A stretch of DNA of 62,580 bases, filler included. It is 9 parts of 9 records of this genome, joined end to end, with 100 filler letters (N's around TTAATTAATTAA, not from the genome) between each part and the next. Parts side by side here need not be neighbours in the genome. Positions count along the whole stretch, not along the records: positions 27,680 to 35,646 come from SRR31156797_34697; 8 more parts are not named here. The stretch is one strand, 5' to 3'. Below are positions 3,699 through 56,760 of the stretch, in pieces; within the stretch, counting starts at the first letter, position 1, and every line of letters begins with the position of its first letter. Below the pieces are notes generated by a model, which had not been told where the DNA came from, searched no databases, and was given only the letters and a program-made list of their open reading frames with translations. The position numbers were made by a program, and so were the translations under genes.

Positions 3699-4358
3699 TT
3701 GCCGAGGCCGCAACGTAAACACGCCGAAGTTGAGGCGGTTAAAAATAAAATACTCCAAAATGCCGTGGAATTGATTAACAAGGTCGGCTTTGAAGGCTTC
3801 ACCATGAATAAGCTGGCCGACATGATGGGCGTATCAGCCCCTTCCATTTACAGCTATTATAAGAACAAGGACGATTTATACCTGAATATAATAACACTGG
3901 GTTTTGAGGAACTCCATAGCGATATCGAAACCGCGTACATGTCCAGTGAGGATCCTTTTGAAAGAGTTGCCGCCATTTTCGAAGCGTACCTGCATTTTGG
4001 TTTTCATAAATCCAATTTTTACAACCTGATGTTCACCTGGCACATGCCTCATTACAAAGACTATATAGGAACGCCGCTGGAATCGACGGCTCATGTTGAG
4101 TTGCTCGCCGCAATGAAAGTAATGCACCTGGTCATGAAAGCCATAAAAGAGTGTGTGGAAAAAGAAAAGCCAATGCTCGAACAAGACATGCAGTTCTACA
4201 TGGTTTATTTCTGGAGCAATATGCACGGATACATTGCGGGCGTTAATAATAGCCTGCTTGAATATATGCACGACGACCCATTATCCGTAAAAAGTAAGAT
4301 AACCGAACTGTTGACCAAAGTATTCAGGGCGGAAATGAATGAATACTGTAACAGATGA
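3699..4358 (+). CDS. TetR/AcrR family transcriptional regulator
   Basis: N-terminal HTH GFEGFTMNKLADMMGVSAPSIYSYYKNKDDL. Confidence 0.9.
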   Translation: MPRPQRKHAEVEAVKNKILQNAVELINKVGFEGFTMNKLADMMGVSAPSIYSYYKNKDDLYLNIITLGFEELHSDIETAYMSSEDPFERVAAIFEAYLHFGFHKSNFYNLMFTWHMPHYKDYIGTPLESTAHVELLAAMKVMHLVMKAIKECVEKEKPMLEQDMQFYMVYFWSNMHGYIAGVNNSLLEYMHDDPLSVKSKITELLTKVFRAEMNEYCNR

Positions 4359-4412
4359 GGCGGCCTGTAAGCCGGCGCCTTTATCCTTAACGATCCCGGA
4401 GGGAGTGATAAG

Positions 4413-6878: not shown

Positions 6879-6930
6879 ATCTTCTTTACAATTACGGCGT
6901 CCGTAAAAGCTATGGAGGAGAAGAGTTAAA

Positions 6931-7302
6931 ATGAGGTTTTCGTTTATACTCTGGTTTTTGACGACTAAATTAACCAAGGCTTTTAAAACAAATGAATCCT
7001 TACGGAAAATAATCAGCGTTCGCGACCTGGCCTTTGTCATCAAAACAAAAGATGACAAGCGGGGCAAACGTTACGTTTTCAATAACGGTGAATTTTACGC
7101 TGACGATGATTTGAATAATTATGACATGGCCTTTATCTGGCGTAATTCCGCTGTTGCCTTCAAAACACTTAGCTCCAAGGACGATACGGCCATCCAGAAG
7201 GCCATAAATGATTGGGACTTGCATCTGGGCGGCGACCCCAATCTGCTTACCTTGTTTGGATTGATTCTGAACGTGGCCATGGGTAAATGGAAACGGGAGT
7301 GA
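6931..7302 (+). CDS. Small hypothetical protein, probable SCP2 sterol-binding-like fold
   Basis: 123 aa; pattern ..AFIW..AFKTL..IQKAINDWDLHLGGD resembles the SCP2 C-terminus; GGAGGAG upstream. Confidence 0.5.
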   Translation: MRFSFILWFLTTKLTKAFKTNESLRKIISVRDLAFVIKTKDDKRGKRYVFNNGEFYADDDLNNYDMAFIWRNSAVAFKTLSSKDDTAIQKAINDWDLHLGGDPNLLTLFGLILNVAMGKWKRE

Positions 7303-7376: not shown

Positions 7377-7476
7377 NNNNNNNNNNNNNNNNNNNNNNNN
7401 NNNNNNNNNNNNNNNNNNNNTTAATTAATTAANNNNNNNNNNNNNNNNNNNNNNNNNNNNNNNNNNNNNNNNNNNN
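7377..7476. other. Artificial contig spacer
   Basis: 44 N + TTAATTAATTAA + 44 N; identical spacers at 12567-12666, 18280-18379, 27580-27679, 35647-35746, 43815-43914, 49107-49206, 56661-56760. Confidence 0.98.
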
Positions 7477-12565: not shown

Positions 12566-12666
12566 ANNNNNNNNNNNNNNNNNNNNNNNNNNNNNNNNNN
12601 NNNNNNNNNNTTAATTAATTAANNNNNNNNNNNNNNNNNNNNNNNNNNNNNNNNNNNNNNNNNNNN

Positions 12667-17748: not shown

Positions 17749-18279
<531 letters not shown>

Positions 18280-18542
18280 NNNNNNNNNNNNNNNNNNNNN
18301 NNNNNNNNNNNNNNNNNNNNNNNTTAATTAATTAANNNNNNNNNNNNNNNNNNNNNNNNNNNNNNNNNNNNNNNNNNNNAAATAACGTTTGATATTCTTC
18401 ATTTTCGAATGTTTTTCCAAATGTAATTCAATTTGAATAGTTTTTATAATCGATACTTTCTTTTTTACTAAATTGCTAAATGTTTAATTGCGCTAATAAC
18501 TTATACAAAAAAAACCTGGAAATAAAAAGGGATTACCAAAAA

Positions 18543-22028: not shown

Positions 22029-24530
22029 TTAACTTTGAACCGTACCTGTAATTGATTCCTGTTTCAATTTTTTTCGACTGCTTTTATTTCCATTATCTCC
22101 GTAACCATAGCCATAACCATAGCCGTAACCGTAGCCGTAACCATAGCCGTATCCGGCACTAAATCCGTAATTTTTCTTGCTTCGTTTAATATTATTAACA
22201 ACAATACCAACACCTTTTAATTGGTGCCTGGAAACTTCACCCAATGCAGTTTTAAGTCCTTGTTTATGGGTATACTTATGACGAACAATAAAAATATTGG
22301 TATCAACAATTTCATTTAATTGAAATAGATCGGCAACAAATCCAATTGGAGGGGTATCAATTACAATAACATCGTATCTTTGTTTTAATTCATTTAAAAG
22401 TTGCAACATTTTATCATCAGTAAGCATTTCAGACGGATTTGGTGGAATTGGTCCGGCAGGAAGTAATTTTAAATAAGGATGTTTGGTTGTAAACGTTATT
22501 TCTTCGAGGCTAGCCTTTCCAATAATATAATTAACAACACCCAGTTCCGATTTCAAACCAAACTCTTCAGCCATTTTTGAATTTCTTAAATCCAAATCGA
22601 GAACAACCGTTTTTTTGCGCATTAAGGCAAACGAAGAGGCAATATTTATTGCATTATACGATTTTCCTTCCATTGGGAATGCAGACGAAACGGCAATTAC
22701 AGGATTATCTTTCCCTTTGGTCATTAAATTTAATTTATTGCGGATTGCACGATAAGGCTCACTGGCTGGCGAATTTGGTTTATCCAACACCAAAGTTCTG
22801 CTTTCAAATTCCCTGTTATTATGAAAAATATGACCTATTATAGGAAAATCGGTAATTGCTTCAATTTCTTCCTGTGTCATAATTTTTGTGTAGAAAAAAT
22901 CGCGAAGAAAAATAATTAAAGCAGGAAATGCCAAACCAAGCAAAAATGCTATGGAATAGATTCTTTTAGTTTGTGGTTTAACAATTGAGCCATTACGTGC
23001 TTCTTCTATAACCTGACTATCGGGGATATTCGATGCTTTCGCAATTTGCGCTTCCGAAAGTTTCTGTAACAGAAAAGTATAAGTTTCATTATTAAGGTTA
23101 TAGGTTCTTTCAATATTAACATAATTACGTTCGGTAGCCGGCAACCTGCGAACCTGCGCTTCAAAACTTCGGATTCGTGTATTTAAATCGGTTAATGCAA
23201 TATCTGATTGTGAAATAATATTTGTTGTATTTTCAAGCAACGAACTTTTTACGCTTTCAATTTGAGCGTTTAACCGGATTATAGTTGGGTGTTCAGAACC
23301 TGGCCGAATAGATGTCTGACTCGATTTTTGAGTAATAAGCTCGTTTAACTGCAATATCAAACTATTTAAGAGCGGGTCGTTAATTCCCATGGCCGAAGGG
23401 GCGATAACAGTTTCCAGGTTCTGGTTGGTTTCGATATAATCTTTTAAATAGTGATAATATTTATTTTGAGTTTCCAACGCTACCTTTTCTTTATCAAGGT
23501 CGTTCATTTGCTGAAGTAACTGCTGCGATTGCATTGAAATATCCAACACCTGGTTTTCGCTTTGAAAACTTTCCATTCGGTTTTCAGAAATATTCAAAGA
23601 ATCGGAAATATTTTCTAATTGAGAATTTATAAACTGAATAGTACGGTTTGCATTTTCATTCTTTTTACCCAGGTTATCTAACTGATAAACTTCGGTTAAC
23701 TTATTTAAAAAATCGCAGCCTTTTTGAATGTTATAATCCCGAACGCTCAACTCCAAAATCGAAGTCTCTTCTATAGGCAAACTTACTGTTAACCGGCTTC
23801 TATATTGGCTAACTAAGGATGCCGGCGTATGAAACCTGAATTTATAATTGTTATTCACTTTGGGGTTAAACCGTTCATTTAAAAGAATGGTAAATGAAAA
23901 TTCATCAGAGTTTAATTTTATTCCAGGTTCTATTTCACGAATAAAAGAAACCTCGGCAATACTTTTTATATATTTTTCATTTAAATAATCAAAAACCGCA
24001 ACATCTTCTTTCTCAACCTGAATAACTAATTTCCCATCAGGTTTAATGGTTAACATAAAATCAGTTTCAACCAGTTGCGAATGTTGTTTATCCCAGATAA
24101 CCTGAAACGGGACTTGATTATATCTTTCGGATACGGCAACTCTTCCAATTCCGAAATAACTAATTTCAAAATCAAGTTCTTCAAGGGTTTTGGTTACTAT
24201 TGGAGTAGAATTCAACAAAACTATCTGATTAAAAATATTTCGCATGCTATTCATTACCCCTAATCCGCCAAAAATATTCCCCGATGGCCCGGAACTACCT
24301 CCCAATAAAGGAGAGCTGGTTTTTTCTTCTTCAACTAATAAGGTTGATTTTATTACGTATTCCGGTGTAGTATATCGATTATAAACATAAGCAGCTCCAA
24401 TGCAGATAAAAACACACAAAAAGAACCAATACCAGTTACGTAGAATCCGGTAAATAATTTTTTTAATATCATTAGAATCATCGCTAACCTGATGATTACC
24501 ATTCAAATTTGGGAATTCGGTTTGGGTCAT
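22029..24530 (-). CDS. wzc: Polysaccharide co-polymerase / BY tyrosine kinase
   Basis: Wzz-type N-terminal TM, EGKS Walker A, LDLDLR, VIDTPP, C-terminal (GY)n tyrosine cluster. Confidence 0.93.
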   Translation of the reverse strand: MTQTEFPNLNGNHQVSDDSNDIKKIIYRILRNWYWFFLCVFICIGAAYVYNRYTTPEYVIKSTLLVEEEKTSSPLLGGSSGPSGNIFGGLGVMNSMRNIFNQIVLLNSTPIVTKTLEELDFEISYFGIGRVAVSERYNQVPFQVIWDKQHSQLVETDFMLTIKPDGKLVIQVEKEDVAVFDYLNEKYIKSIAEVSFIREIEPGIKLNSDEFSFTILLNERFNPKVNNNYKFRFHTPASLVSQYRSRLTVSLPIEETSILELSVRDYNIQKGCDFLNKLTEVYQLDNLGKKNENANRTIQFINSQLENISDSLNISENRMESFQSENQVLDISMQSQQLLQQMNDLDKEKVALETQNKYYHYLKDYIETNQNLETVIAPSAMGINDPLLNSLILQLNELITQKSSQTSIRPGSEHPTIIRLNAQIESVKSSLLENTTNIISQSDIALTDLNTRIRSFEAQVRRLPATERNYVNIERTYNLNNETYTFLLQKLSEAQIAKASNIPDSQVIEEARNGSIVKPQTKRIYSIAFLLGLAFPALIIFLRDFFYTKIMTQEEIEAITDFPIIGHIFHNNREFESRTLVLDKPNSPASEPYRAIRNKLNLMTKGKDNPVIAVSSAFPMEGKSYNAINIASSFALMRKKTVVLDLDLRNSKMAEEFGLKSELGVVNYIIGKASLEEITFTTKHPYLKLLPAGPIPPNPSEMLTDDKMLQLLNELKQRYDVIVIDTPPIGFVADLFQLNEIVDTNIFIVRHKYTHKQGLKTALGEVSRHQLKGVGIVVNNIKRSKKNYGFSAGYGYGYGYGYGYGYGYGYGDNGNKSSRKKLKQESITGTVQS

Positions 24531-25327
24531 TATTTTAATAGATTTAGAGTAAGTAAAACTATCGACAATAAAGAAGCAGCAATTGAAATCGGCGCTGCGT
24601 ACGGCATATTTTTGGCTCCGTAAATTTTTGTACTGTGTTCAACATAAACAATGTCGTGAGGAAGAATATAATAAAATGGAGAATATATTATGTTCGGATC
24701 GGTAAGGTTTAATTCTACTATTTGCTTCCCCTCGGGCAACTCACGAATCACTTTTATGTTTCTGCGGTTCCCGTAGTCTGTAATATCACCGGCGGCGCCA
24801 AGAGCTTCAAAAATAGTTAGTTGGTTTTTTACCATTAATATTTGTCCGGGCACACGAACTTCTCCTAATACCGTAATATTCCGGTTAACCAGTTTAACAA
24901 AAACCGAAGCACTCTCCAGGTAAATATCAACCTTTTCCTGTAAGCGGTCATTTATTTCAGAAATAGTTAATCCTCCTACTTCAATTTTTCCCAAATACGG
25001 GTATTCAATATTCCCATTTTCATCAACCAGGTATGTAATAATTTCCATTCCATTGGAAGAACCTGCACTCCCGGTCATCCCCTGAGTTCCGGTAAGGTTT
25101 AAAAAAGCTGCATTTAACGGATCGTCACTAATTACCTGAATAAACAATTGATCGTTTGGCCTAACCTGGTAAATTTCAGGAAAAGGCCCGTTTTCATGTA
25201 ATATTTCAGTATTTATTCCTTTTAAATAGGTTACTTGTTTTAGTGGCGTACTGCAGGAAAATGTTAGAAATAAAATAACAACAAAAAGGTGAAAAAGATT
25301 TTTTTGGGAAATAGCATTTATAAACAT
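24530..25327 (-). CDS. wza: Polysaccharide export lipoprotein
   Basis: LTFSC lipobox, YLVDENGNIEYPYLG, TVLGEV, LTIFEALGAAGD; start moved to 25327. Confidence 0.9.
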   Translation of the reverse strand: MFINAISQKNLFHLFVVILFLTFSCSTPLKQVTYLKGINTEILHENGPFPEIYQVRPNDQLFIQVISDDPLNAAFLNLTGTQGMTGSAGSSNGMEIITYLVDENGNIEYPYLGKIEVGGLTISEINDRLQEKVDIYLESASVFVKLVNRNITVLGEVRVPGQILMVKNQLTIFEALGAAGDITDYGNRRNIKVIRELPEGKQIVELNLTDPNIIYSPFYYILPHDIVYVEHSTKIYGAKNMPYAAPISIAASLLSIVLLTLNLLK

Positions 25328-25559
25328 GTGTCTGAATTTAGAAGTTAAAAATATAAAATATTTAGTTGAAGTTGATCCTATATTATTTATTATTTTTAAT
25401 AATATTTCAAATAACACCAAATAAAATAACCGATGTTTATATATTTGTATTAAAAAAGGTTAGCCACATTATATAAAAACCAAAACCAAAATATCCTCAA
25501 AATTACATTAATAATACAATTCTAAACTACCCTGTAATCAAACCATACTTAATGAACAA

Positions 25560-26801
25560 ATGCCTGATATTACCCACAAAAATAAAGCAATATTTTTATT
25601 TACACTTTTTGTATTTTTCATAAATATAAAAGCTGTTTTTTCGCAAAACGAGCAAGAAACTTCAGAAGAACTGGTTAAAATGGGTTTTGAAAATGTGAGC
25701 ACCAGAATTTCTTCGGGAAATATATATGCTTCAATAGAAAATAATATTTTCAGATGGGAGCCCCTCGCTATATCAGCTGCACTCGATATAATTTCTAAAA
25801 ACGTGAATGATTCTGTAATTATTCATTTGATAACAATAAAAAAAGGAATACCAACAAATAATATTTCGGTAAACGCATTGAGTTGGAAATCATTTCGAAA
25901 TGGGAACATAAATAAAGATGAAATTTCTGAGAACCTTACTGTAAACCAAAATATAAATGAAGCATGGCAAATTCTAAAAAATTCAGAAAAAACAAATAAA
26001 AACACAGGGAAAACAGACGTTGTTATTTATCCCCACTTTTTATACGAGAATACCCAGCTTCGAAAAATTTATGAAACACAAATTAATATTGCCCCGGCTG
26101 CAGAATTTTCTTTATGGAAGGGAAATAAATTTACCGGACAAGTCATATTTCCAATACATAACGAACTTGGGTATGAGGGTAATTTCATACGCCCAGGGTA
26201 TGTTACTATTTCACAAGACTTTAGACTTAAACATTCCTGGTTTGGGAATATTGCAACAGGTAACTTTAACAACAGCAGATATGGGATTGCGGTAAAAATA
26301 TGGCACCCATTAAAAAATGAAAACTGGCATCTTGAAATTAAAGCCGGATTAACAGGATATTCTCATTTCTTTGATAATAACTGGAGACATGGAGCTCTAA
26401 ATACCATAACCTGGTCTTCTTCACTTTCATGGTATTATTCGCGATACCACCTAATATTTAAAGGCGGAATTTCACAATACATTTATGGTGATAAAGGATT
26501 ATTTGCCTCGTGCACCCGATTATTTGGAGAAACAACTGTAGGTTTTTACGCACAATATAACGAACATAATTTCAACGGAGGCTTTAACGTATCTATACCG
26601 TTCCCATTTAGAAAAAGATGCATACGAAACCGAATACGAATTAACATCCCAAACCATTACAAAATAAACTATAATTCTGGTAATGAGTTGCTTTATGCAC
26701 AAAATTTCACAGCAAACATAGGTATAAACTCAATAAATTATTTTAATTTTACTAAATCGATTAAATACGAAATTATTAACCTTTTAAAATATACTCCATG
26801 A
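25560..26801 (+). CDS. YjbH-domain outer-membrane protein (EPS-associated)
   Basis: Signal peptide, LVKMGFENV, aromatic beta-strand pattern; divergent from wza. Confidence 0.65.
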   Translation: MPDITHKNKAIFLFTLFVFFINIKAVFSQNEQETSEELVKMGFENVSTRISSGNIYASIENNIFRWEPLAISAALDIISKNVNDSVIIHLITIKKGIPTNNISVNALSWKSFRNGNINKDEISENLTVNQNINEAWQILKNSEKTNKNTGKTDVVIYPHFLYENTQLRKIYETQINIAPAAEFSLWKGNKFTGQVIFPIHNELGYEGNFIRPGYVTISQDFRLKHSWFGNIATGNFNNSRYGIAVKIWHPLKNENWHLEIKAGLTGYSHFFDNNWRHGALNTITWSSSLSWYYSRYHLIFKGGISQYIYGDKGLFASCTRLFGETTVGFYAQYNEHNFNGGFNVSIPFPFRKRCIRNRIRINIPNHYKINYNSGNELLYAQNFTANIGINSINYFNFTKSIKYEIINLLKYTP

Positions 26802-27570: not shown

Positions 27571-28013
27571 TTTCAAATGNNNNNNNNNNNNNNNNNNNNN
27601 NNNNNNNNNNNNNNNNNNNNNNNTTAATTAATTAANNNNNNNNNNNNNNNNNNNNNNNNNNNNNNNNNNNNNNNNNNNNCCGTATTAACTACAGGGTCTG
27701 GATGGACAGTAGGTACATCAAGTTATGATAAAAATGAAATGCAAGACCTTGCATTCGGCAGTCTTCGGGTCATACTCACAGAATCACGAACAGCCCTCAG
27801 TAAAAAGGTTAAGGATAAAGCAAACACCAATTTTTCATTGTATATCAGGTAATCTAAAACTGGTGGCCTTTACCTTTTCTTCCCGTCTTCCCCAATTAGA
27901 CCAGTACTAGATGGAAATGGAATATGAACTATCTACTTGTAGATAATTGTTTGTCATTGCTAGGTTACCCTCCTACTCTATCTTCTCAAATCGCCCAAAA
28001 AAACGGAAAAACG

Positions 28014-28042
28014 TTGACATGCGAAAGTCATTAGAGTAGGCT
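28014..28042 (+). promoter_or_regulatory. Putative sigma70 promoter of the transferase operon
   Basis: TTGACA-N17-TAGGCT, about 230 nt upstream of ATG 28272. Confidence 0.55.
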
Positions 28043-28271
28043 AAACATTCTAATTAGTGAAATAGACGTTCTGTCTTCTGATAATTCAACGTCTTTTTTC
28101 CAACTCACTTCTTGTAGTAATTCTACTATCAGATTTATGCCCTTCAGCTGTTCCCACAGAGCCAATCGGCACAAAAGAAAAGATATATATCATTTTTTGC
28201 CAACCTGATTCGCACAACTCCGTGTTGAATTCTCGCAATGTATGGTTCGGCTATAATTCTGGAGGATTTCT

Positions 28272-29141
28272 ATGCAAGAAAAAACTCACCATTCTGATCT
28301 TGGAGGAGAACGGGTTCGTACGGCTTTGCTGCTCGCAGCAGGAACTGGCAGTCGTCTCTCTCCACTAACAGATATGACCCCTAAATGTCTCGTCCACGTT
28401 AATGAATTTACAATCCTGGAGAGACTTATCCGCTCACTTCAGGAGTATGATTTTAAACGGCTGGTTATAGTCGTCGGCCATCAGGCTGATTCAGTTCGTG
28501 AATACCTTGGAACCAGGGCGGGAGGGATGGAAATATCCTATATTACTAGTCCTCTCTATAAAACGACTAATAATATCTACTCACTATGGCTTGCTAGAAA
28601 AGTCATAGATGAGCCGTTTATGCTTATTGAAAGTGATCTAGTTTTTGACACCCCAATGCTGGAGGGGATGCTGGTTTCTGATCGCATAGCAGTGGGGAAA
28701 ATACTCCCTTGGATGAACGGTACAACAGTAACTGTAAACAGATCGAATGAGGTTGATGCCTTTCATTGCGGTATCAATAAACTGGACGATAGCCATTTCA
28801 AGACCGTCAACATCTACAGTCTTTCCAGGGCTACCTGGGCCTTAGTTTGTGAAAAACTGGACCACTACATCTCCAATAATTTAGTGAATGGTTATTATGA
28901 AACCGTCTTTGCGGATATGGTGGACGATGGCAGCATTACTTTTTCGCCGGTATACTTTGACTCCAGCCTCTGGTACGAGATTGATACTCTAGCCGATCTG
29001 AGAGCCGCTGAAACCGTTTGTGACCTCTTCGATCAGCAACTACCCTGTGAACTTTTTGTCAGTAGTTCAGCTCTGCCGGCTCATTCCGCAGGTCTTGAAG
29101 GTGCTGTGTCATCAACTTCTTCGCCAAAGGTTGTTCATTAA
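28272..29141 (+). CDS. LicC-like phosphocholine/aminoalcohol-phosphate cytidylyltransferase
   Basis: LLAAGTGSRL..PKCL, TNNIYSLWLA, IESDLVF, WYEIDT; GGAGG RBS. Confidence 0.88.
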   Translation: MQEKTHHSDLGGERVRTALLLAAGTGSRLSPLTDMTPKCLVHVNEFTILERLIRSLQEYDFKRLVIVVGHQADSVREYLGTRAGGMEISYITSPLYKTTNNIYSLWLARKVIDEPFMLIESDLVFDTPMLEGMLVSDRIAVGKILPWMNGTTVTVNRSNEVDAFHCGINKLDDSHFKTVNIYSLSRATWALVCEKLDHYISNNLVNGYYETVFADMVDDGSITFSPVYFDSSLWYEIDTLADLRAAETVCDLFDQQLPCELFVSSSALPAHSAGLEGAVSSTSSPKVVH

Positions 29142-30244
29142 TGATGATGCCCAACAAAAAAACTACCGCTCAAGAACGCTACGATTATATCTCAAGTCAA
29201 CATGGTGGTTATTGGCGTGATGATTTTATAGATCACAACTATCTCTATAACCTCTATTTCCCGCCTGAGGATTTCTTTAGCCATTGCAAAGAAAACCTTC
29301 ATCAACTGATTCTTAATTACCCTGTCGGCCAAAGTGAGCTTGCTCATCTGGCTGGCGAGTTGATTCACCAGCAGCCTGAGCAAATTGTAGTGGGCAATGG
29401 AGCCGCAGAGCTTATCAAGATTATTGCCGGGATGGATCGGAAAATGATTGTTCCGGTCCCGTCGTTTAATGAATATGTCAATGCCGCACGAGCAGGTAGT
29501 GTCATTGAATTTCCGTTGCTGGCACCTTCCTTTCAATTAGATGTTGATGCATTTGGAGAAGAGGCTATTCGTGCTAAAGCGCGTATTGCCGTGGTAGTTT
29601 CACCGAATAACCCGACATCACTGTTGGTGCCCAAGAAAGAGCTGATTCGCCTACTGAAAATCCTGGAAGATCATAACTGCATGCTCATAGTCGATGAATC
29701 ATTTATCGATTTTGCAGAAAATAGCGAGGATGAAAGTCTTGAAAACGATATTGAAGATTATCAAAACCTGGCGATTATAAAAAGTATGAGCAAGGCCTAT
29801 GGTATCTGCGGAATACGGATAGGCTATTTACTGACCGCCAACACGGACTTTCGGGCGCAGGTCAGACAGGGACTCCATATCTGGAACATAAATGGTTTTG
29901 CTGAAGAGTTCCTACGATGCGCTCCCCAATACAGGCAGCAGTTCAAAATAAGCTGTAAGAAGGTACAGGACGATCGCGATGAATTTTACACACTCCTTCA
30001 GCAAATTCCTGGAACCGAGGTCTATAAACCTGATGCGAATTATATTTTTTGTCGTCTGCCGGACGGGGGGCCTTCCGCTCCCGAGGTAACCCAAAGACTG
30101 TTCATCGAGCACGATATATACATAAAACACTGTAAGGGTAAAGTGCTACCAGAGTCGGACCGTTACGTTCGCATTGCCAGTCGGACCCAGAAAGAAAACC
30201 TCGAACTTGTACGTGCATTGCGCGCTGTTCTTGAACTGGTTTAG
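29141..30244 (+). CDS. Class I/II PLP enzyme (CobD/HisC-like)
   Basis: GNGAAELI, PSFNEY, SPNNPT, VDESFIDF, KSMSKAYGICGIRIGY. Confidence 0.88.
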   Translation: MMMPNKKTTAQERYDYISSQHGGYWRDDFIDHNYLYNLYFPPEDFFSHCKENLHQLILNYPVGQSELAHLAGELIHQQPEQIVVGNGAAELIKIIAGMDRKMIVPVPSFNEYVNAARAGSVIEFPLLAPSFQLDVDAFGEEAIRAKARIAVVVSPNNPTSLLVPKKELIRLLKILEDHNCMLIVDESFIDFAENSEDESLENDIEDYQNLAIIKSMSKAYGICGIRIGYLLTANTDFRAQVRQGLHIWNINGFAEEFLRCAPQYRQQFKISCKKVQDDRDEFYTLLQQIPGTEVYKPDANYIFCRLPDGGPSAPEVTQRLFIEHDIYIKHCKGKVLPESDRYVRIASRTQKENLELVRALRAVLELV

Positions 30245-30883
30245 ATGAGCATGAAAACAACGCAAAAAACTATACTGTCTTACGCTGGAGATTTACCAAA
30301 TATTTGTTCATTGGTAGGGCTCTTTTGTACCTTGCTCGCCATATATTTTTCAATCATTGGTCTATTCCATGCTGCCATGATCGGTATGATTTGGGCTGTG
30401 TTTTTTGATTGGAGCGATGGCATTATCGCCAGGAGGATGAAAGGCCGTACTGAAGAACAGGGGGCTTTCGGGGCACAACTCGACTCACTTATTGATATTG
30501 TCAGTTTTGGTGTCTGTCCGGCGGTATTTCTGCTTAGTTATGGTCATTTCAGTGCCTGGTACCTGCCCGGTGCCTTTCTCATACTTGCAACCGGTGTTAT
30601 TCGCCTGAGTTTTTTTAATGTCTTTGGGTTGGTTGATAAATCGACCTATTTGGGCCTTGCCCTAGACAATAATGTTCTCCTGCTGGCTGTCGTCTTCTTG
30701 TTTAGTCCGATGATGAGTCAGGGAGCATTCTCGATTGTACTTTATATTGTACTCATGCTTTTGGCGGTGTTGAATGTTGCGCCGATCAAAACACCCAAAT
30801 TTGCAGGCAAATGGTACTTCGCCCTCACCGGCTATACAGTGCTGATGTCGATACTTTTTTCCTGGCAGTGGTATACCCTCTAA
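30245..30883 (+). CDS. CDP-alcohol phosphatidyltransferase
   Basis: DWSDGIIAR...GAQLDSLID signature; multiple TM helices. Confidence 0.92.
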   Translation: MSMKTTQKTILSYAGDLPNICSLVGLFCTLLAIYFSIIGLFHAAMIGMIWAVFFDWSDGIIARRMKGRTEEQGAFGAQLDSLIDIVSFGVCPAVFLLSYGHFSAWYLPGAFLILATGVIRLSFFNVFGLVDKSTYLGLALDNNVLLLAVVFLFSPMMSQGAFSIVLYIVLMLLAVLNVAPIKTPKFAGKWYFALTGYTVLMSILFSWQWYTL

Positions 30884-30904
30884 CGGTACGTCTAAAGCAA
30901 TTTT

Positions 30905-32182
30905 ATGAATATAGAGATGAGAGCACCCAAGCCTGGGCTGAGAGGATTCATATCAAATAGTGATAATGAACTGGTCATATTTGCTGCAGACAATTTTTCG
31001 CAGTTCCCGCGTCGTGATGATTCCATCCGATCAAGCTGTGACCGTGCCCTGGCTGCCGCCTCTAGCTCCGATCTGGTATTGCTCCGTGGAATCCAGAACC
31101 GAGAATACTATGTCTGGCTTCGTTCATTCGACCTGGGGCCTGATAACGTTATTGAGTATAATCAGTTGTCTTCTGAATTCACTCTTTCGCAATGCATTCT
31201 CAGGAATCCTGAACCTGTATTAAAGCACATAGAAAAGACAGGCAGAAAACCGGTATATGCTCCCTGGTTTTCAGGACAAATGGAAGCGGAAGCTGCCCAA
31301 GTTATAGGTGCGGATCTTTTTGGCGCAACCGAGGCAGCCACCACACAATATAACGAAAAAGCCGAATTCAAAAATATCTGTAAAGAGCTTGGAATAGCGG
31401 TTGTCGTGGGAACGACTTTTACGATCGCTTCGGAAAATAAAGAAAATTGCAGTGACATGGGGCGCGTCATCCTCAGACTTTTAGCAAAGCACGAGGAGGT
31501 TATAATACGTGGCACGCTGGGAGAATCGGGCATGTCATTGTATAGAACGGTTGGAGATGACATCCAGAACCTGTATGACAAGATAGTTGCCAGTGGCGAG
31601 AAGAAAGTAATCATCGAACCGTTTTTGGATGTCATATCAAGTCCTAATGATCAATGGGCAATCGGTAACAACAGAACCATACATCATCTGGGGGTGGCCG
31701 ACCAGATATGTGAAAAGGGTATGGTACATGTCGGAACCCAGAGCTGCCAACAACCAGCAAGTCGTATTTCTGACTATATCATGGAGACATCGCGTACAGT
31801 AGTCGAACATATGTCTGCAACTGGCTATAAAGGGGTGCTTGGCATCGATTATATTGTGACTAGTGAAGGAATCTTCCCTGTTGAAAATAACGCACGCTTC
31901 AATGGCTCAACATTTGTTCGACTCATCCTTGACCAACTTGAAAAAAGCCACTTTTTCACTGCATGCTGGAAATTTATCAAGATTTCAATCAAACCCTGTT
32001 CCTTTTCTGAACTCACCCAAAGGCTTGGGTCACTGCTCTATGATGGTAATAAACCCAACTCGGTTTTTCCATACAACTGCAATGCAATAGAATTAAACGG
32101 CAGCTTTGCTATGATCCTCTTCGCCGAAGATAACAATCACCTTGTGCACCTTGAACAATCCCTACACAAAATTGGTATTTAA
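30905..32182 (+). CDS. ATP-grasp ligase, probable pre-ATP-grasp/PGM1-like peptide ligase
   Basis: DRALAAASSSDLVLL..YYVWL..LG N-domain; NEKAEF; IIEPFL; GVLGIDYI; ENNARFNGST; LLYDG..VFPYN..GSFAMI C-domain. Confidence 0.7.
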   Translation: MNIEMRAPKPGLRGFISNSDNELVIFAADNFSQFPRRDDSIRSSCDRALAAASSSDLVLLRGIQNREYYVWLRSFDLGPDNVIEYNQLSSEFTLSQCILRNPEPVLKHIEKTGRKPVYAPWFSGQMEAEAAQVIGADLFGATEAATTQYNEKAEFKNICKELGIAVVVGTTFTIASENKENCSDMGRVILRLLAKHEEVIIRGTLGESGMSLYRTVGDDIQNLYDKIVASGEKKVIIEPFLDVISSPNDQWAIGNNRTIHHLGVADQICEKGMVHVGTQSCQQPASRISDYIMETSRTVVEHMSATGYKGVLGIDYIVTSEGIFPVENNARFNGSTFVRLILDQLEKSHFFTACWKFIKISIKPCSFSELTQRLGSLLYDGNKPNSVFPYNCNAIELNGSFAMILFAEDNNHLVHLEQSLHKIGI

Positions 32183-32258
32183 CGGGCCTGATGAGCAATC
32201 AAATAGTCGCGTCGTAACCACCGTATCAGAAACATTCACAGTTATTCGGAGCAACATC

Positions 32259-32387
32259 ATGGGAAAAGAACGCAAAAGCAACAAAGAAGGAAAGAAGAAA
32301 GCAGCCCTGACCCCAAAGGAAAAAAAAGCAGCCAAGAAGGCTAAAAAAGGATCAGGTGATAGTTTTATTAAGAGCACTAATACCTGA
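32259..32387 (+). CDS. 42-aa Lys-rich small protein
   Basis: GGAG RBS 7 nt upstream of ATG; MGKERKSNKEGKKKAALTPKEKKAAKKAKKGSGDSFIKSTNT. Confidence 0.75.
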   Translation: MGKERKSNKEGKKKAALTPKEKKAAKKAKKGSGDSFIKSTNT

Positions 32388-32484
32388 GCGTTTACTCAGC
32401 CGATCATGTTTCCTGTTAGATCCTTGCCGGCGGTAATTCACTCAGATAAGTTTGGTAATCAATGCAAACACCAACAGGACAAGT

Positions 32485-33330
32485 ATGAACATTATACATA
32501 TTTCTGATCTTCATTTCGGGCCTCGACATTGGCTTGGTGACGATGGTGTCCTGTTGGAAAGGATCAACTTCTACGATGCTGATATCGTAATCAATACCGG
32601 CGACAATACAACAGACGGGCTTGAAGATGAATTTGCAAAAGCAGGCGAATTTCTGAAGGCCATAAAATGTAAACACGTGATTTCTACCCTTGGAAATCAT
32701 GACAAAAGAAATATGCGTTCACATGAGCTTTTTCGAAAATATATATCTGATAGAGAAATTATTCGAATAGCTGAATCTGAGACAATTCGTAAGAAGCACC
32801 TCTTTCTCAAGCAGAACATCACCAGAGTTGATGACCACTTTACCGATGTAAATTTCGTTCAGCTTGTCCAGGTAAATGGACTGGCAGTACTGTTTATCGG
32901 TATAGATTCCAACGAAATGTACTGTGATGACGGATTTGTCGAACAAGAGGTGCTGAGCGCAGTATCAGAAAAGATTAATCAGACCAGCTATGACATTGCA
33001 CTCTTAATGACGCATTATTCGATACTTGGTACGGATGAATGTCCTCTGAAAAATTCAGCAGTCCTGATTGATTTGGTCCAAAAACATAAAATCGAGTTCG
33101 TCTTCTGCGGGCATACGCATGATCTTGAATTAATGCGAACTACTGATTTATATCAAGGCCACTCCTTTAATCATTTCATGTGCGGCACTTTGTCATCAAG
33201 CAATATCGAAAACAATGACAACATGTTCCTCTACTATAAAAATCTTGGAATGAAAGATATGCAGCTCCTTCTGACCAGGATTCATCTCAAGAATGGCTAC
33301 ATGCATTTTACCGAGGAAACAGTTTTTTAG
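32485..33330 (+). CDS. Calcineurin-like metallophosphoesterase
   Basis: HISDLH, TGDNT, GNHD, GHTH. Confidence 0.9.
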   Translation: MNIIHISDLHFGPRHWLGDDGVLLERINFYDADIVINTGDNTTDGLEDEFAKAGEFLKAIKCKHVISTLGNHDKRNMRSHELFRKYISDREIIRIAESETIRKKHLFLKQNITRVDDHFTDVNFVQLVQVNGLAVLFIGIDSNEMYCDDGFVEQEVLSAVSEKINQTSYDIALLMTHYSILGTDECPLKNSAVLIDLVQKHKIEFVFCGHTHDLELMRTTDLYQGHSFNHFMCGTLSSSNIENNDNMFLYYKNLGMKDMQLLLTRIHLKNGYMHFTEETVF

Positions 33331-33475
33331 TTCCATCACCCATACAATCAAACAAACCATTCTTTGGACCAGCGTGGGAACCACCCGGCCCCGAGTATAA
33401 CCATTTATTTGAAATAACCTCCGCACAAATTGGAGGAACATTTTCAATGCAGAAAAAAAGTTAAACAACACCATA

Positions 33476-34501
33476 ATGGCATCATCAAATTTCGAAAAAG
33501 AAAAACAAACTTTCCTCGATTACGTCAATGACAATATCGAGTTACTACGAAACGCCGAATCGTCCTTTTCAACACTTATACAATCACTGCTGGCAACCTC
33601 TCCAGAACTGTCGGGATCCACTGTTACATCTCGCCTTAAGGGCAGTAAAGAAAGCATTAAAAAGTTTTCACGAAAATATCAGTCAGAACTTGAGAAGGGA
33701 AAAAAAGCATATGAGATAAAAGATTTTATTACAGACCTAATAGGGGTTCGGATCATCTGTCTTTATGAAAAAAATATTAAGGAGGTCGGTAATATTCTTC
33801 GGGATAACCTCTGCTTAATTGATTCTACGGATAAATCCCAACTCATTGAACAGGCAGAAAACACCTTTGGCTACAAAGGGCTCCATCTCGATATGAAGCT
33901 TGATGAGGCACGGGAAGCAATGCCTGAATACAGCAGATATAAAGACATCGTCTTCGAGGTTCAGATTCGAACCATTATACAGGATGCATGGTCTGTTCTT
34001 GATCATAAAATAAAATATAAAAAATCGATTCCTCACGGGCTGAAAAGGCGAATTAACAGCCTAGCAGCGCTTTTTGAAACAGCGGATCGTGAATTTTACA
34101 GTATTCAGGAAGAAACAGAGAAACTCGAACAGATAATAAAGGAAGAATCAAAGAGTACGGATGCCAAAAGTGAAGTGCTCAATGCATTCCATTTCGCTAA
34201 AATTTCTGAGACCTATTTCCCTGGAACCCGTTTGGCCTCACACAAGATTGATGCGCTGGTCGATGAAATAGTGAAAATGAAGCAGATCACCAACGGCTCT
34301 TTTGAAAAAATAGTCCGAGATAATATTGAAACAATAAAGGGATACCAAGAGCTCCTTGATGGGAAACATACACTGACCCTCTATACAGTTATCCGGCATA
34401 TCTTGTATTTCTGCGACAAGTCGTCATTTGCACATATTTTATATGACAACCAAAGGAACACTTTTGAGAATTGGCTTAAGAAACAAAAATCGTCCAATTG
34501 A
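33476..34501 (+). CDS. Small alarmone synthetase-like RelA/SpoT-domain protein
   Basis: SRLK, DLIGVRI, GYKGLH, EVQIRT..QDAW...DH..KYK. Confidence 0.88.
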   Translation: MASSNFEKEKQTFLDYVNDNIELLRNAESSFSTLIQSLLATSPELSGSTVTSRLKGSKESIKKFSRKYQSELEKGKKAYEIKDFITDLIGVRIICLYEKNIKEVGNILRDNLCLIDSTDKSQLIEQAENTFGYKGLHLDMKLDEAREAMPEYSRYKDIVFEVQIRTIIQDAWSVLDHKIKYKKSIPHGLKRRINSLAALFETADREFYSIQEETEKLEQIIKEESKSTDAKSEVLNAFHFAKISETYFPGTRLASHKIDALVDEIVKMKQITNGSFEKIVRDNIETIKGYQELLDGKHTLTLYTVIRHILYFCDKSSFAHILYDNQRNTFENWLKKQKSSN

Positions 34502-34548
34502 TCAGAGGTCATTGTTTTCACACCCCATCATCAACTAAAAGGTATTGT

Positions 34549-35196
34549 ATGCCCCCGTTGCGAATTCGTTATCAATCTATTGAGATTGAGGATGTTGATA
34601 TTCATGTCAGAACGTTATGGGATAACCAACAATATTCGGACCCGGATGGAATTGCATCAAGACTGGGGATATCTTCTGCAACCTGGCCATTGTTTGGGAT
34701 TGTTTGGGCGTCTTCAGAAGTGCTTGCACATCTAATGTTTGATTATGAGATTGAGGGGCTTCGGATATTGGAAGTAGGTTGCGGTATTGGTCTTGCCAGT
34801 CTTGTTCTTAATCATCGTTTGGCTGATATTACATCTACTGACTATCACCCGGAAGCAGAAGCATTTCTTCACGAAAACACAAGACTCAACAACGGACCGG
34901 ATATTCCATTCATACGTACTGCTTGGGGGGATACAAATACCAGCCTTGGGACATTTGATCTTATTATAGGAAGTGACCTCTTGTATGAAAAAGGCCATTC
35001 CGCAGAGTTGTCACATTTTATTGATCAGCACTCTAAAATAAACTGCGATGTGATAATTGTTGATCCGGGAAGGGGACAATCTGCCGGTTTTAGTAAAAAA
35101 ATGACTAAGTACGGTTATTCCATCAGCAAAAAGCAGATCTGTCGTGACATTTTGAAAAAAGAGGCAAGTGGGAAAATTATGCATTATCACCGATAG
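34549..35196 (+). CDS. Class I SAM methyltransferase (Methyltransf_16/METTL21-like)
   Basis: WPLFGIVW, LEVGCGIGL, TDYH, IIGSDLLYE. Confidence 0.85.
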   Translation: MPPLRIRYQSIEIEDVDIHVRTLWDNQQYSDPDGIASRLGISSATWPLFGIVWASSEVLAHLMFDYEIEGLRILEVGCGIGLASLVLNHRLADITSTDYHPEAEAFLHENTRLNNGPDIPFIRTAWGDTNTSLGTFDLIIGSDLLYEKGHSAELSHFIDQHSKINCDVIIVDPGRGQSAGFSKKMTKYGYSISKKQICRDILKKEASGKIMHYHR

Positions 35197-35551
35197 GTCT
35201 TTATTAATTAAATCTTGGCTGTGTCATGGAGAAATGGAAAAAGCCCACAGGTGAAGCTTGTCTCGTTTATTGTGGTATTTTCTGAAATCACTAACAGTGT
35301 AAAATTAAAATTTACTTTTGTTTACAAGGTCAGACGCTTAGAAGTACCAGTCTGCGTATAAAAATACCCTTCACGCGATTGTCAGCTGAGCTAATAAATA
35401 AACAAGAAAATACATTCTGCCGTAATTTTATCCAATAAACCTGGACCACTTCTGCAAATCAGCGAGCCATCGCAGGTTACGACGTAACTATATATTTGCG
35501 CTGGCAAGGCATAGCTTGAACACAATATCTACGAGTTAACCTTTATAGAAT

Positions 35552-35622
35552 AGGGTTATCAATAGTTGCATTTCACGGTCCTGCAATCTACCTCGGAGTG
35601 TGTTGCAATTATTGATAACCCT
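35552..35622. repeat. 71-bp element with 19-bp terminal inverted repeats (MITE-like)
   Basis: AGGGTTATCAATAGTTGCA ... TGCAATTATTGATAACCCT, 18/19 match. Confidence 0.7.
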
Positions 35623-35748
35623 GAAGAACTGAACTGCGGAGCGGATNNNNNNNNNNNNNNNNNNNNNNNNNNNNNNNNNNNNNNNNNNNNTTAATTAATT
35701 AANNNNNNNNNNNNNNNNNNNNNNNNNNNNNNNNNNNNNNNNNNNNTT

Positions 35749-43814: not shown

Positions 43815-43914
43815 NNNNNNNNNNNNNNNNNNNNNNNNNNNNNNNNNNNNNNNNNNNNTTAATTAATTAANNNNNNNNNNNNNNNNNNNNNNNNNNNNNN
43901 NNNNNNNNNNNNNN

Positions 43915-49104: not shown

Positions 49105-49208
49105 GTNNNNNNNNNNNNNNNNNNNNNNNNNNNNNNNNNNNNNNNNNNNNTTAATTAATTAANNNNNNNNNNNNNNNNNNNNNNNNNNNNNNNNNNNNNN
49201 NNNNNNAT

Positions 49209-56660: not shown

Positions 56661-56760
56661 NNNNNNNNNNNNNNNNNNNNNNNNNNNNNNNNNNNNNNNN
56701 NNNNTTAATTAATTAANNNNNNNNNNNNNNNNNNNNNNNNNNNNNNNNNNNNNNNNNNNN

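Follow-up and report, generated by a model that had tools for sequence, protein, structure and literature searches.

A recurrent cassette of a CobD-like enzyme, a cytidylyltransferase and a phosphatidylserine-synthase-like transferase, with an optional ATP-grasp ligase, that may make a phosphodiester

The locus considered here resembles several described systems, each in part. In hyperthermophiles, IPCT, a cytidylyltransferase of the LicC fold, and DIPPS, a small membrane cytidine diphosphate (CDP)-alcohol phosphotransferase, lead to a soluble phosphodiester. LicC and PntC are cytidylyltransferases for phosphocholine and 2-aminoethylphosphonate (AEP, the phosphonate isostere of ethanolamine phosphate), respectively, and LicD-family transferases use CDP-aminoalcohol donors. 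Assembly of the cobamide nucleotide loop combines decarboxylation of a phospho-amino acid, formation of an amide, nucleotidyl activation and formation of a phosphodiester. In the HS:2 capsule pathway of Campylobacter jejuni, the pyridoxal phosphate (PLP) enzymes Cj1436 and Cj1437 make ethanolamine phosphate or serinol phosphate. The TupA-like ATP-grasp enzyme Cj1438C of that pathway amidates the carboxylate of glucuronate with a PLP-derived amine (PMC11800379). Here we describe an operon of four genes, in a 62,580-nucleotide stretch of DNA (the window), that encodes a cytidylyltransferase (NT), a PLP-dependent enzyme (referred to simply as PLP), a CDP-alcohol phosphotransferase (CPT) and an ATP-grasp ligase (AG). 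We propose, tentatively and from comparison of sequences, that this cassette would make a soluble phosphodiester from a CDP-aminoalcohol and that AG would optionally N-acylate it. Judged by its family scores, which fail every equivalog cut-off, the cassette belongs to none of the pathways compared. A preliminary description of the locus knew of no characterised pathway with this combination of NT, PLP, CPT and AG; likewise, no characterised example was found in the literature searched, which lay mostly outside subscription journals, and a prior description is possible.

The genes are arranged as listed below, and the ORFs (open reading frames) and Pfam matches agree with the four enzyme classes, the tight coupling and the junctions first described.

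28272-29141, + strand: NT, LicC/PntC-like nucleotidyl(cytidylyl)transferase, 289 aa
29141-30244, + strand: PLP, CobD/HisC-like class I/II PLP enzyme, 367 aa
30245-30883, + strand: CPT, CDP-alcohol phosphotransferase with phosphatidylserine (PS)-synthase architecture, 212 aa
30905-32182, + strand: AG, ATP-grasp carboxylate-amine ligase, 425 aa

NT and PLP overlap by 1 nt (TAATG), the TAG of PLP is followed directly by the ATG of CPT (a gap of 0 nt), and 21 nt separate CPT from AG.

Relatives were collected in genome and metagenome scans, and the loci are labelled by L-numbers (e.g. L059). The AG-anchored set, from the genome scan, holds the best 80 of 94 relatives, with which the seven proteins of the contig were compared by tblastn; the CPT-anchored set, from the metagenome scan, holds the best 80 of at least 577 confirmed relatives and is free of the bias that comes from selecting for AG. 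The two sets overlap, a few metagenome loci being the same contigs as genome loci (e.g. L128/L035). AG is at least 48% identical in 72 AG-anchored loci, ten of which have less than 700 nt upstream, leaving 62 that are informative. Thirty-seven of these have the full NT-PLP-CPT-AG in the same order, 16 have CPT-AG (plus PLP where the flank allows) beside a flank too short for the rest, two are the variant loci L059 and L065 discussed below, and seven were flagged as being without an adjacent CPT (L064, L036, L049, L004, L030, L055 and L061). Nothing adjoins AG in L004, L030, L055 and L061, a CPT remnant is present in L036 and an NT fragment in L049; the genomes of L004 and L055 carry the NT-PLP-CPT trio on a different contig, where CPT is not followed by AG.

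The gene order recurs far beyond chance. Carriers, at 50-97% identity, are found in the Desulfobacterota, Methanosarcinales/ANME-2 (anaerobic methanotrophic archaea), Bacteroidota, Chloroflexota, Kiritimatiellota (Kiritimatiellales), Chlorobiota and Gammaproteobacteria. The nearest relative is Desulfogranum marinum DSM 2058 (77-97% identical), and further carriers are Desulfosediminicola flagellatus, Desulforhopalus, Desulfotalea, Desulfocapsa, Desulfosarcina, Desulfuromonadales, Methanococcoides and Methanolobus. The cassette is a self-contained, horizontally mobile biosynthetic module; it is considered mobile because the flanks differ from locus to locus and because transposases lie beside L089 (of the IS200 type, directly after CPT) and L059.

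The first proposal was to be given up if AG proved not to be conserved with the other three genes. It mostly withstands this test, since AG accompanies them in the same order across two domains of life; AG is nevertheless an accessory and not part of the core. Where at least 400 nt of upstream sequence is available (70 loci of the CPT-anchored set), PLP lies just upstream of CPT in 66. AG is intact beside CPT in 21 of the 80 loci of that set, present as a remnant (a partial match despite at least 1.4 kb downstream) in six, cut by the contig end in four and absent (no AG within at least 400 nt downstream) in 36, the remaining 13 being uninformative; 36 of the 67 informative loci are thus without AG, and six have remnants only. 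What is conserved as the core is the trio NT-PLP-CPT; AG is optional, having been lost, decayed or unlinked many times. In a quick maximum-likelihood tree (IQ-TREE) of 118 distinct CPTs, loci with and without AG interleave, and the AG label changes 27 times, at least 12 of these changes being forced by well-supported branches. A Methanosarcinales clade, in which 25 of 28 members have AG, is nested among the bacterial CPTs on short internal branches. As AG comes and goes without visible co-divergence of NT or CPT, the simplest reading is that AG comes into play after the trio or takes its product as substrate; the short branches that lead to the nested archaeal clade, it can be argued, point to substrates that are independent of the domain-specific lipid backbone.

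Alternatively, AG might be independent of the trio, as a free-standing amino-acid (dipeptide) ligase that rides on the same mobile island. Eight distant AG homologues (39-43% identical) in Bdellovibrionota, Moorena and Dadabacteria are without trio partners; a beta-aspartyl peptidase gene is the neighbour of AG in Bdellovibrionota and Dadabacteria, and in Moorena AG stands alone. AG stands apart from the trio at 52-62% identity in L004, L055 and L061, and about half of the loci have the trio and no AG. Nevertheless, CPT and AG stay adjacent, with gaps of ~20-100 nt, across phyla and in both domains, and even the alphaproteobacterial variant, in which both PLP and NT have been replaced, keeps them so. 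The L004 and L055 genomes, moreover, still have the trio elsewhere. We consider independence of AG improbable.

CPT matches Pfam family PF01066 (CDP-OH_P_transf; 2e-13, 51.4 bits against a cut-off of 22) and has the motif D55-x2-D58-G-x2-A62-R63-x12-G76-x3-D80-x3-D84, in which D55, D58, D80 and D84 are invariant in all 20 aligned family members. The spacer from A-R to G is 12 residues long in all 20, not the canonical eight, which amounts to a four-residue insertion relative to the PS synthase of Methanocaldococcus jannaschii (MjPSS). Entries for MjPSS are the only sequence matches of CPT in the PDB (1e-10). Foldseek places an AlphaFold2 model of CPT (pLDDT 84.4, pTM 0.82) on MjPSS over its full length (TM 0.64-0.70, 193-209 aligned columns, E 3.5e-7), the next folds being DIPPS (E 0.11), PgsA1 and PIPS (E ~0.1). 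MjPSS (7b1k/7pow) is thus the best full-length match in sequence and in fold, with the four aspartates kept. The serine site of MjPSS includes Ala59 and Ser63, and its pocket is lined by Arg101 and Lys157; the active site faces the cytoplasm, and the C-terminal helices enclose the lipid tails of CDP-diacylglycerol (CDP-DAG) (PMC8633023). In a HMMER alignment, Ala59, Ser63, Arg101 and Lys157 correspond to A77, S81, R120 and K185 of CPT, and S81, R120 and K185 are invariant among the 20 aligned members.

On the evidence of sequence and model, CPT is a full-length look-alike of PS synthase and not a Kennedy-type DAG phosphotransferase. It nevertheless differs from MjPSS and PssA in scoring far under the family cut-offs (105 bits against 240 for archaetidylserine synthase, NF038087; 75.4 against 107 for pssA, TIGR00473), in its longer spacer and in always occurring with a cytidylyltransferase. 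The resemblance to IPCT/DIPPS is also incomplete: NT and CPT are not fused in the cassette, PLP and AG are added, there is no inositol-phosphate synthase, and the fold of CPT is closer to that of PS synthase than to that of DIPPS. The Kennedy-like route that had been proposed survives as an outline of CTP activation, transfer and later modification of the amine, which fits the variants, and is mistaken as to the transferase. The Kennedy (CDP-ethanolamine) pathway differs further in that no ethanolamine or choline kinase occurs among the recurrent neighbours of the cassette. Since CPT is of the PS-synthase type and has kept the serine-site residues, a phospholipid headgroup, the main product first suggested, is no likelier than a soluble phosphodiester.

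It is also possible, if somewhat less likely than a soluble phosphodiester, that the product is a membrane-lipid headgroup after all. Either CDP-ethanolamine or CDP-aminopropanol would be used with DAG or archaeol, or CDP-DAG or CDP-archaeol with a serine-like acceptor, and AG would then give an N-aminoacyl lipid of the phosphatidylethanolamine (PE) or archaetidylethanolamine type. Nothing of the PS-synthase fold is missing from CPT, which has both the short beta-sheet and the C-terminal helices of the MjPSS lipid cavity, and this suits a lipid substrate at least as well; its best family matches, and all of its characterised close families, are lipid synthases. The pairing of NT with CPT mirrors the Kennedy route, and the methyltransferase that takes the place of AG in three loci recalls the methylation of PE to phosphatidylcholine. 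However, with a CDP-aminoalcohol as donor the lipid hydroxyl must fit a small polar serine site, the residues of which are conserved, and with CDP-DAG as donor NT is left without a role. Archaeal and bacterial CPTs are ~62% identical, with no long archaeal branch despite the different lipid backbones. Moreover, PS decarboxylase (Psd) is encoded in all five of the carrier genomes checked, adjoining a canonical CDP-OH transferase in three; these genomes have a canonical PssA-Psd route of their own, and an ordinary PE route from the cassette would be redundant. Finally, hydrolases of a soluble type (metallophosphoesterase and beta-aspartyl peptidase) fit a lipid less well.

The amine that would reach CPT is suggested by the first two genes. 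PLP matches Pfam PF00155 (Aminotran_1_2; 1e-37, over the gathering score), with the Schiff-base lysine at Lys218 in SMSK. It reaches 175.7 bits on the CobD model TIGR01140 (cut-off 290.55) as against 144.4 for hisC, both being under cut-off. The best structures are 6oux, a 'threonine phosphate decarboxylase-like enzyme' (1.2e-38, 136 bits), and 3ftb (5.6e-38), compared with ~1e-25 (93 bits) for two CobD structures and 1e-19 or weaker (at most 74 bits) for genuine HisCs. In the synthesis of norcobamides, 6oux would be the enzyme that decarboxylates L-serine-O-phosphate. PLP is predicted to be an O-phospho-amino-acid decarboxylase with phosphoserine as its favoured substrate, so that ethanolamine phosphate (from phosphoserine) is the more likely amine and aminopropanol phosphate the less likely. 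No kinase gene was found among the recurrent neighbours of the cassette loci, which would fit phosphoserine as the precursor, since all cells have it ready in phosphorylated form.

The likeness of PLP to CobD raises the question of whether the cassette is an alternative means of assembling the cobamide nucleotide loop, with a CobD-like enzyme, a CbiB-like amide ligase, a CobY-like NTP transferase and a CobS-like phosphodiester synthase. The chemical grammar is identical, step by step, to that of the CobD, CbiB, CobY/CobU and CobS pathway; CobD is the best family for PLP, and NT has a weak match to the CobY family (1.5e-5). Yet only the CobD-like step is homologous. Canonical CobD genes, above the cut-off at 296-307 bits, lie elsewhere in four of five cassette genomes, the PLP of the cassette being a paralogue that scores 173-180 bits. 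CPT is a homologue of PS synthase and not of CobS, the relatives of AG ligate amino acids, AG is dispensable, and cobamide genes are not recurrent nearby. A role in cobamide assembly is therefore very improbable indeed.

NT matches Pfam PF00483 (NTP_transferase; 3.9e-10, 40.2 bits against a gathering score of 21.2). Its nearest solved structures are LicC (1jyk, 4.5e-15), the Treponema fusion of PntC with AEP transaminase (6pd1, 2.7e-9) and IPCT (2xme/4mnd, 1.6e-6), and residues 17-248 match the model of the fused IPCT-DIPPS (NF041135, 6.6e-16). The sequence LAAGTGSRL at residues 21-29, with GTGSRL from residue 24, is the nucleotide loop; we take G-x-G-(T/S)-R-L to be the N-terminal nucleotide loop of LicC/PntC-type cytidylyltransferases. 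The last ~40 residues are a non-conserved tail. Glu120 (ESD motif) aligns with Glu104 of the Treponema enzyme, Tde-PntC ('LLESD'). Of 91 NT orthologues, 89 have this Glu and the other two have Asp. In Tde-PntC, Glu104 contacts the primary amine of AEP, and the equivalent residue in LicC is an Asp (Asp105) (PMC6697681). From these similarities we infer that NT is a CTP-dependent enzyme that forms a CDP-aminoalcohol.

Because LicC and PntC, the nearest relatives of NT, are both surface-decoration enzymes, it might be supposed that the phospho-aminoalcohol is placed on a glycan, a teichoic-acid-like polymer or a protein serine, as in the Lic and Pnt systems, and that AG modifies the pendant amine. 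A LicD-family transferase does occur inside the cassette in one locus (L009), and the conserved serine site of CPT could serve a seryl hydroxyl. In that system, however, the transfer is made by LicD and not by a CPT; the cassette has no LicA kinase and no linked glycan genes, and beside ~160 loci there is no recurrent glycosyltransferase, flippase or polymer-export gene. The Wza/Wzc genes of the window are on another contig, the active site of MjPSS faces the cytoplasm, and we know of no PS-synthase-type enzyme that acts on polymers. Decoration of the surface thus seems a poor prospect.

Some insight into the substrate is provided by variants of the cassette. In the alphaproteobacterial loci L059 and L065, CPT (61-63% identical) and AG (50-51%) are kept, PLP is replaced by a class V homologue of the PhnW/AepZ AEP-aminotransferases (2.8e-89, 300 bits), which matches the AEP-transaminase half of 6pd1 (1.3e-47), and a different, MobA-like NT is positioned after AG. 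The association of an AEP-aminotransferase homologue with an NT is reminiscent of the Tde-PntC fusion. This replacement suggests a 2-aminoethyl-phosph(on)ate as the simplest choice of substrate for the downstream enzymes that both forms have in common. In L009, PLP and CPT are set apart by an insertion (4349-7302 of that locus) with genes for a class III aminotransferase, for a 2-hydroxyacid dehydrogenase and for the LicD-family transferase. The LicD-family gene fits the predicted product of NT, given the donors that LicD uses; for the 2-hydroxyacid dehydrogenase as a SerA-like supply of phosphoserine, the glyoxylate reductase and phosphoglycerate dehydrogenase models score alike. In L064 (3983-5887), from the metagenome-assembled genome (MAG) of a member of the Nannocystaceae, NT and PLP are fused into a protein of 634 aa, and CPT (44% identical) is 1.5 kb upstream of AG, with two ORFs without known function in between. 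Lastly, in three loci that lack AG, a class I S-adenosylmethionine (SAM)-dependent methyltransferase of ~285 aa directly follows CPT (L102 2213-3067, L125 3075-3923 and L145 2619-3491); the occurrence of a SAM methyltransferase in the place of AG suggests that the amine is a site of tailoring.

AG had been called PGM1-like and a Pfam check for PreATP-grasp and PGM1_C had been suggested. Neither PreATP-grasp (PF18604) nor PGM1_C (PF18105) is matched at E<=10, the only matches being to ATP-grasp_3 (1.6e-4, 22.2 bits, just below the 23.2 cut-off), GSH-S_ATP and GARS_A; nor is there any TupA-type Pfam match at E<=10. E327-N-N-A-R331 is invariant in AG. By sequence, LdmS comes first (NCBIfam NF047900, 1.7e-12, 46.8 bits against a cut-off of 475; PDB 7r8p, 8.5e-7), followed by BesA (1.9e-5), and PGM1 (3wvq) reaches only E 0.06 in the PDB sequence search. 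With a structure model of pLDDT 65.6, ranks 1-21 of the Foldseek search are 8ynd, 3wvq, 8yi6 and 7r8q/7r8p, that is, the Streptomyces ATP-grasp peptide ligase (8ynd), PGM1 (3wvq, 1.8e-12), BesA and LdmS, with E values from 4e-13 to 4e-11. The nearest ESM-atlas clusters have PreAtp-grasp, PGM1_C or LdmS_N on part of their members. So far as sequence and model allow, 'PGM1-like' is fair as a label of fold and neighbourhood and not as one of membership. The LdmS/BesA/PGM1 clade thus supplies the best matches in sequence and fold; AG differs from it in being only ~15% identical, in scores far below the cut-offs, and in a predicted amine that is an aminoalcohol phosphodiester and not an amino acid or peptide. 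Among 6,166 candidates scored, 405 AG homologues were found at E<=1e-3; those with names are mostly called 'hypothetical protein', and three have a generic ATP-grasp or carbamoylphosphate-synthase label.

LdmS takes Asp as its carboxylate substrate, and its gene adjoins a peptidase gene (PMC9486568). Aspartate is our best guess for the acyl group of AG, because LdmS, an Asp-Met ligase, is its best sequence match and because genes for beta-aspartyl peptidases accompany it. Beyond the four cassette genes only two neighbours recur, a metallophosphoesterase and an Asparaginase_2/beta-aspartyl-peptidase homologue. The metallophosphoesterase cluster is present at ten of 81 loci, after AG in Desulfobulbales, before NT in two Methanolobus loci and directly after CPT in L094 and L096. 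The Asparaginase_2 homologue is found in eight loci: it is directly beside AG in L036, L070, L072 and L079, it is divergent from AG in L073, and in L002, L034 and L056 it lies two genes beyond AG. In five loci a distant or stand-alone AG homologue and Asparaginase_2 occur side by side without the trio (L070 8001-10263, L072 8001-10246, L079 1827-3889, L036 6694-9254 and L073 6820-9137), and there the two may serve as ligase and hydrolase of a beta-aspartyl compound. A gene of the TrpRS/TyrRS family lies divergently upstream in L070 and L079.

Taken together, these comparisons suggest the following scheme for a soluble product. PLP would decarboxylate O-phospho-L-serine, a universal intermediate for which no kinase gene is needed, to ethanolamine phosphate; aminopropanol phosphate from threonine phosphate is the second choice. 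NT would convert ethanolamine phosphate and CTP to a CDP-aminoalcohol of the CDP-ethanolamine type. CPT, a membrane enzyme, would then transfer the phospho-aminoalcohol to a small polar hydroxyl acceptor, for example L-serine, to give a soluble phosphodiester of the serine-phosphoethanolamine type, in a step analogous to the synthesis of di-myo-inositol phosphate by IPCT/DIPPS. In loci that have AG, this one included, the ligase would use ATP to amidate the free amine with the carboxylate of an amino acid; in the loci that have a methyltransferase and no AG, the amine would be methylated instead. The occasional metallophosphoesterase and beta-aspartyl peptidase would turn the compound over.

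An amine resembling ethanolamine phosphate is favoured because PLP is nearer to 6oux and CobD than to HisC, because an AEP-aminotransferase homologue can take its place, and because of the PntC-type Glu of NT and the LicD of L009. A small polar acceptor is favoured because the serine-site residues are kept, NT matches the IPCT-DIPPS model over its full length, DIPPS provides a precedent, archaeal and bacterial CPTs are alike, Psd is separate and the associated hydrolases are of the soluble type. The HS:2 capsule pathway (Cj1436/Cj1437, Cj1438C and the phosphatase Cj1435) shares with this scheme an amine made as an aminoalcohol phosphate by a PLP enzyme and an amide made by an ATP-grasp enzyme; the phosphate is removed there, whereas in the cassette it would be retained for the phosphodiester. 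A more specific version, which we put forward as speculation and hold to be unlikely, is that the trio would be the first prokaryotic route to a soluble phosphodiester of the serine-phosphoethanolamine type, by way of a descendant of PS synthase that uses CDP-ethanolamine and not a lipid donor. AG would make an N-aspartyl or other N-aminoacyl derivative, and the product would be a compatible solute of a new class that ANME-2 and methylotrophic methanogens exchange with their sulfate-reducing and heterotrophic neighbours in marine sediment.

Besides the fold and family relationships of CPT given above, several observations weigh against a soluble phosphodiester made in this way. Sequence scores do not separate decarboxylase from transaminase for PLP, and the enzyme that replaces it in L059 and L065 is a transaminase homologue, its 300 bits lying under the family cut-off of 360.8. 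Neither of the two variant MAGs, which at 2.1 and 1.5 Mb are small and possibly incomplete, yielded a phosphoenolpyruvate (PEP) mutase. In CPT, position 77, the equivalent of Ala59, is Gly or Ala in 18 of 20 members and so is not invariant. The model of AG is a poor one, and the clue to aspartate consists of eight of ~160 loci together with a distant family match of 46.8 bits. No transporter or osmo-regulator is linked to the cassette, and in the literature searched serine-phosphoethanolamine came only from animal studies.

It should be noted how the operon lies in the window. The window consists of nine contigs joined by eight linkers of the form N44-TTAATTAATTAA-N44, and the spread of GC content over the contigs, from 0.29 to 0.60, suggests a mixed or metagenomic draft. 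As the parts are separate contigs, gene neighbourhoods that extend across a linker are artificial. The sole true genomic context of the operon is its own contig, at 27680-35646 (7,967 bp, GC 0.42). The linkers and the other genes of that contig are as follows.

7377-7476: artificial linker, N44-TTAATTAATTAA-N44
12567-12666: artificial linker, N44-TTAATTAATTAA-N44
18280-18379: artificial linker, N44-TTAATTAATTAA-N44
27580-27679: artificial linker, N44-TTAATTAATTAA-N44
35647-35746: artificial linker, N44-TTAATTAATTAA-N44
43815-43914: artificial linker, N44-TTAATTAATTAA-N44
49107-49206: artificial linker, N44-TTAATTAATTAA-N44
56661-56760: artificial linker, N44-TTAATTAATTAA-N44
32452-33330, + strand: calcineurin-like metallophosphoesterase (Pfam PF00149, 4.1e-16)
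33476-34501, + strand: gene like those of RelA_SpoT-type small alarmone synthetases
34498-35196, + strand: Methyltransf_16-type methyltransferase, overlapping the RelA_SpoT-type gene by 4 nt

The RelA_SpoT-like and methyltransferase genes (33476-35196) were considered as part of the system and rejected, since L001 and L006, the two nearest relatives, are the only other loci to have them (86-97% identity). Between AG and the metallophosphoesterase there is a lysine-rich ORF of ~42 aa (32260-32387, + strand), inside an 81-aa ORF (32142-32387) that clusters with an equally placed ORF of Desulfogranum marinum (L006 9238-9483). Promoter and terminator scans of the operon contig gave signal at the level of shuffled sequence, and an Rfam scan of the whole window gave no matches. 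The sequencing runs listed for it comprised a probable source DNA run and sediment runs with a small share, and no RNA run. The genes for Wza/Wzc/YjbH, APS-kinase and inositol-monophosphatase that appear 'upstream' were rejected as context, being on a different contig. A polysaccharide export cluster at 22029-26801, on a contig of GC 0.33, comprises a Wzc-like tyrosine-kinase/chain-length protein, a Wza-like exporter and a YjbH-like gene, and belongs to another contig or organism. An ORF of the NifH/frxC family (17791-18327, + strand, 6.4e-83), cut by the contig end and linker, lies on the contig of GC 0.60 and is unrelated to the operon.

The cassette unites known enzyme families and known chemistry in a widespread, uncharacterised pathway that is common to two domains of life. 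It is abundant, as the number of CPT relatives confirmed in the metagenome scan indicates, and at 50-65% identity it is common to guilds of marine sediment: ANME-2 and methylotrophic Methanosarcinales, Desulfobulbales/Desulfobacterales, Desulfuromonadales and Bacteroidota. The existence of cultured carriers (Desulfogranum marinum DSM 2058, Desulfosediminicola flagellatus, and species of Methanococcoides and Methanolobus) makes the question of its product directly testable. If the proposal is true, the PS-synthase scaffold would have gained a reaction new to it, with a soluble CDP-alcohol. The product may be a hitherto undescribed osmolyte or polar-lipid headgroup, and either would matter for sediment metabolomes, for intact-polar-lipid biomarkers and for the enzymology of the CDP-alcohol phosphotransferases.

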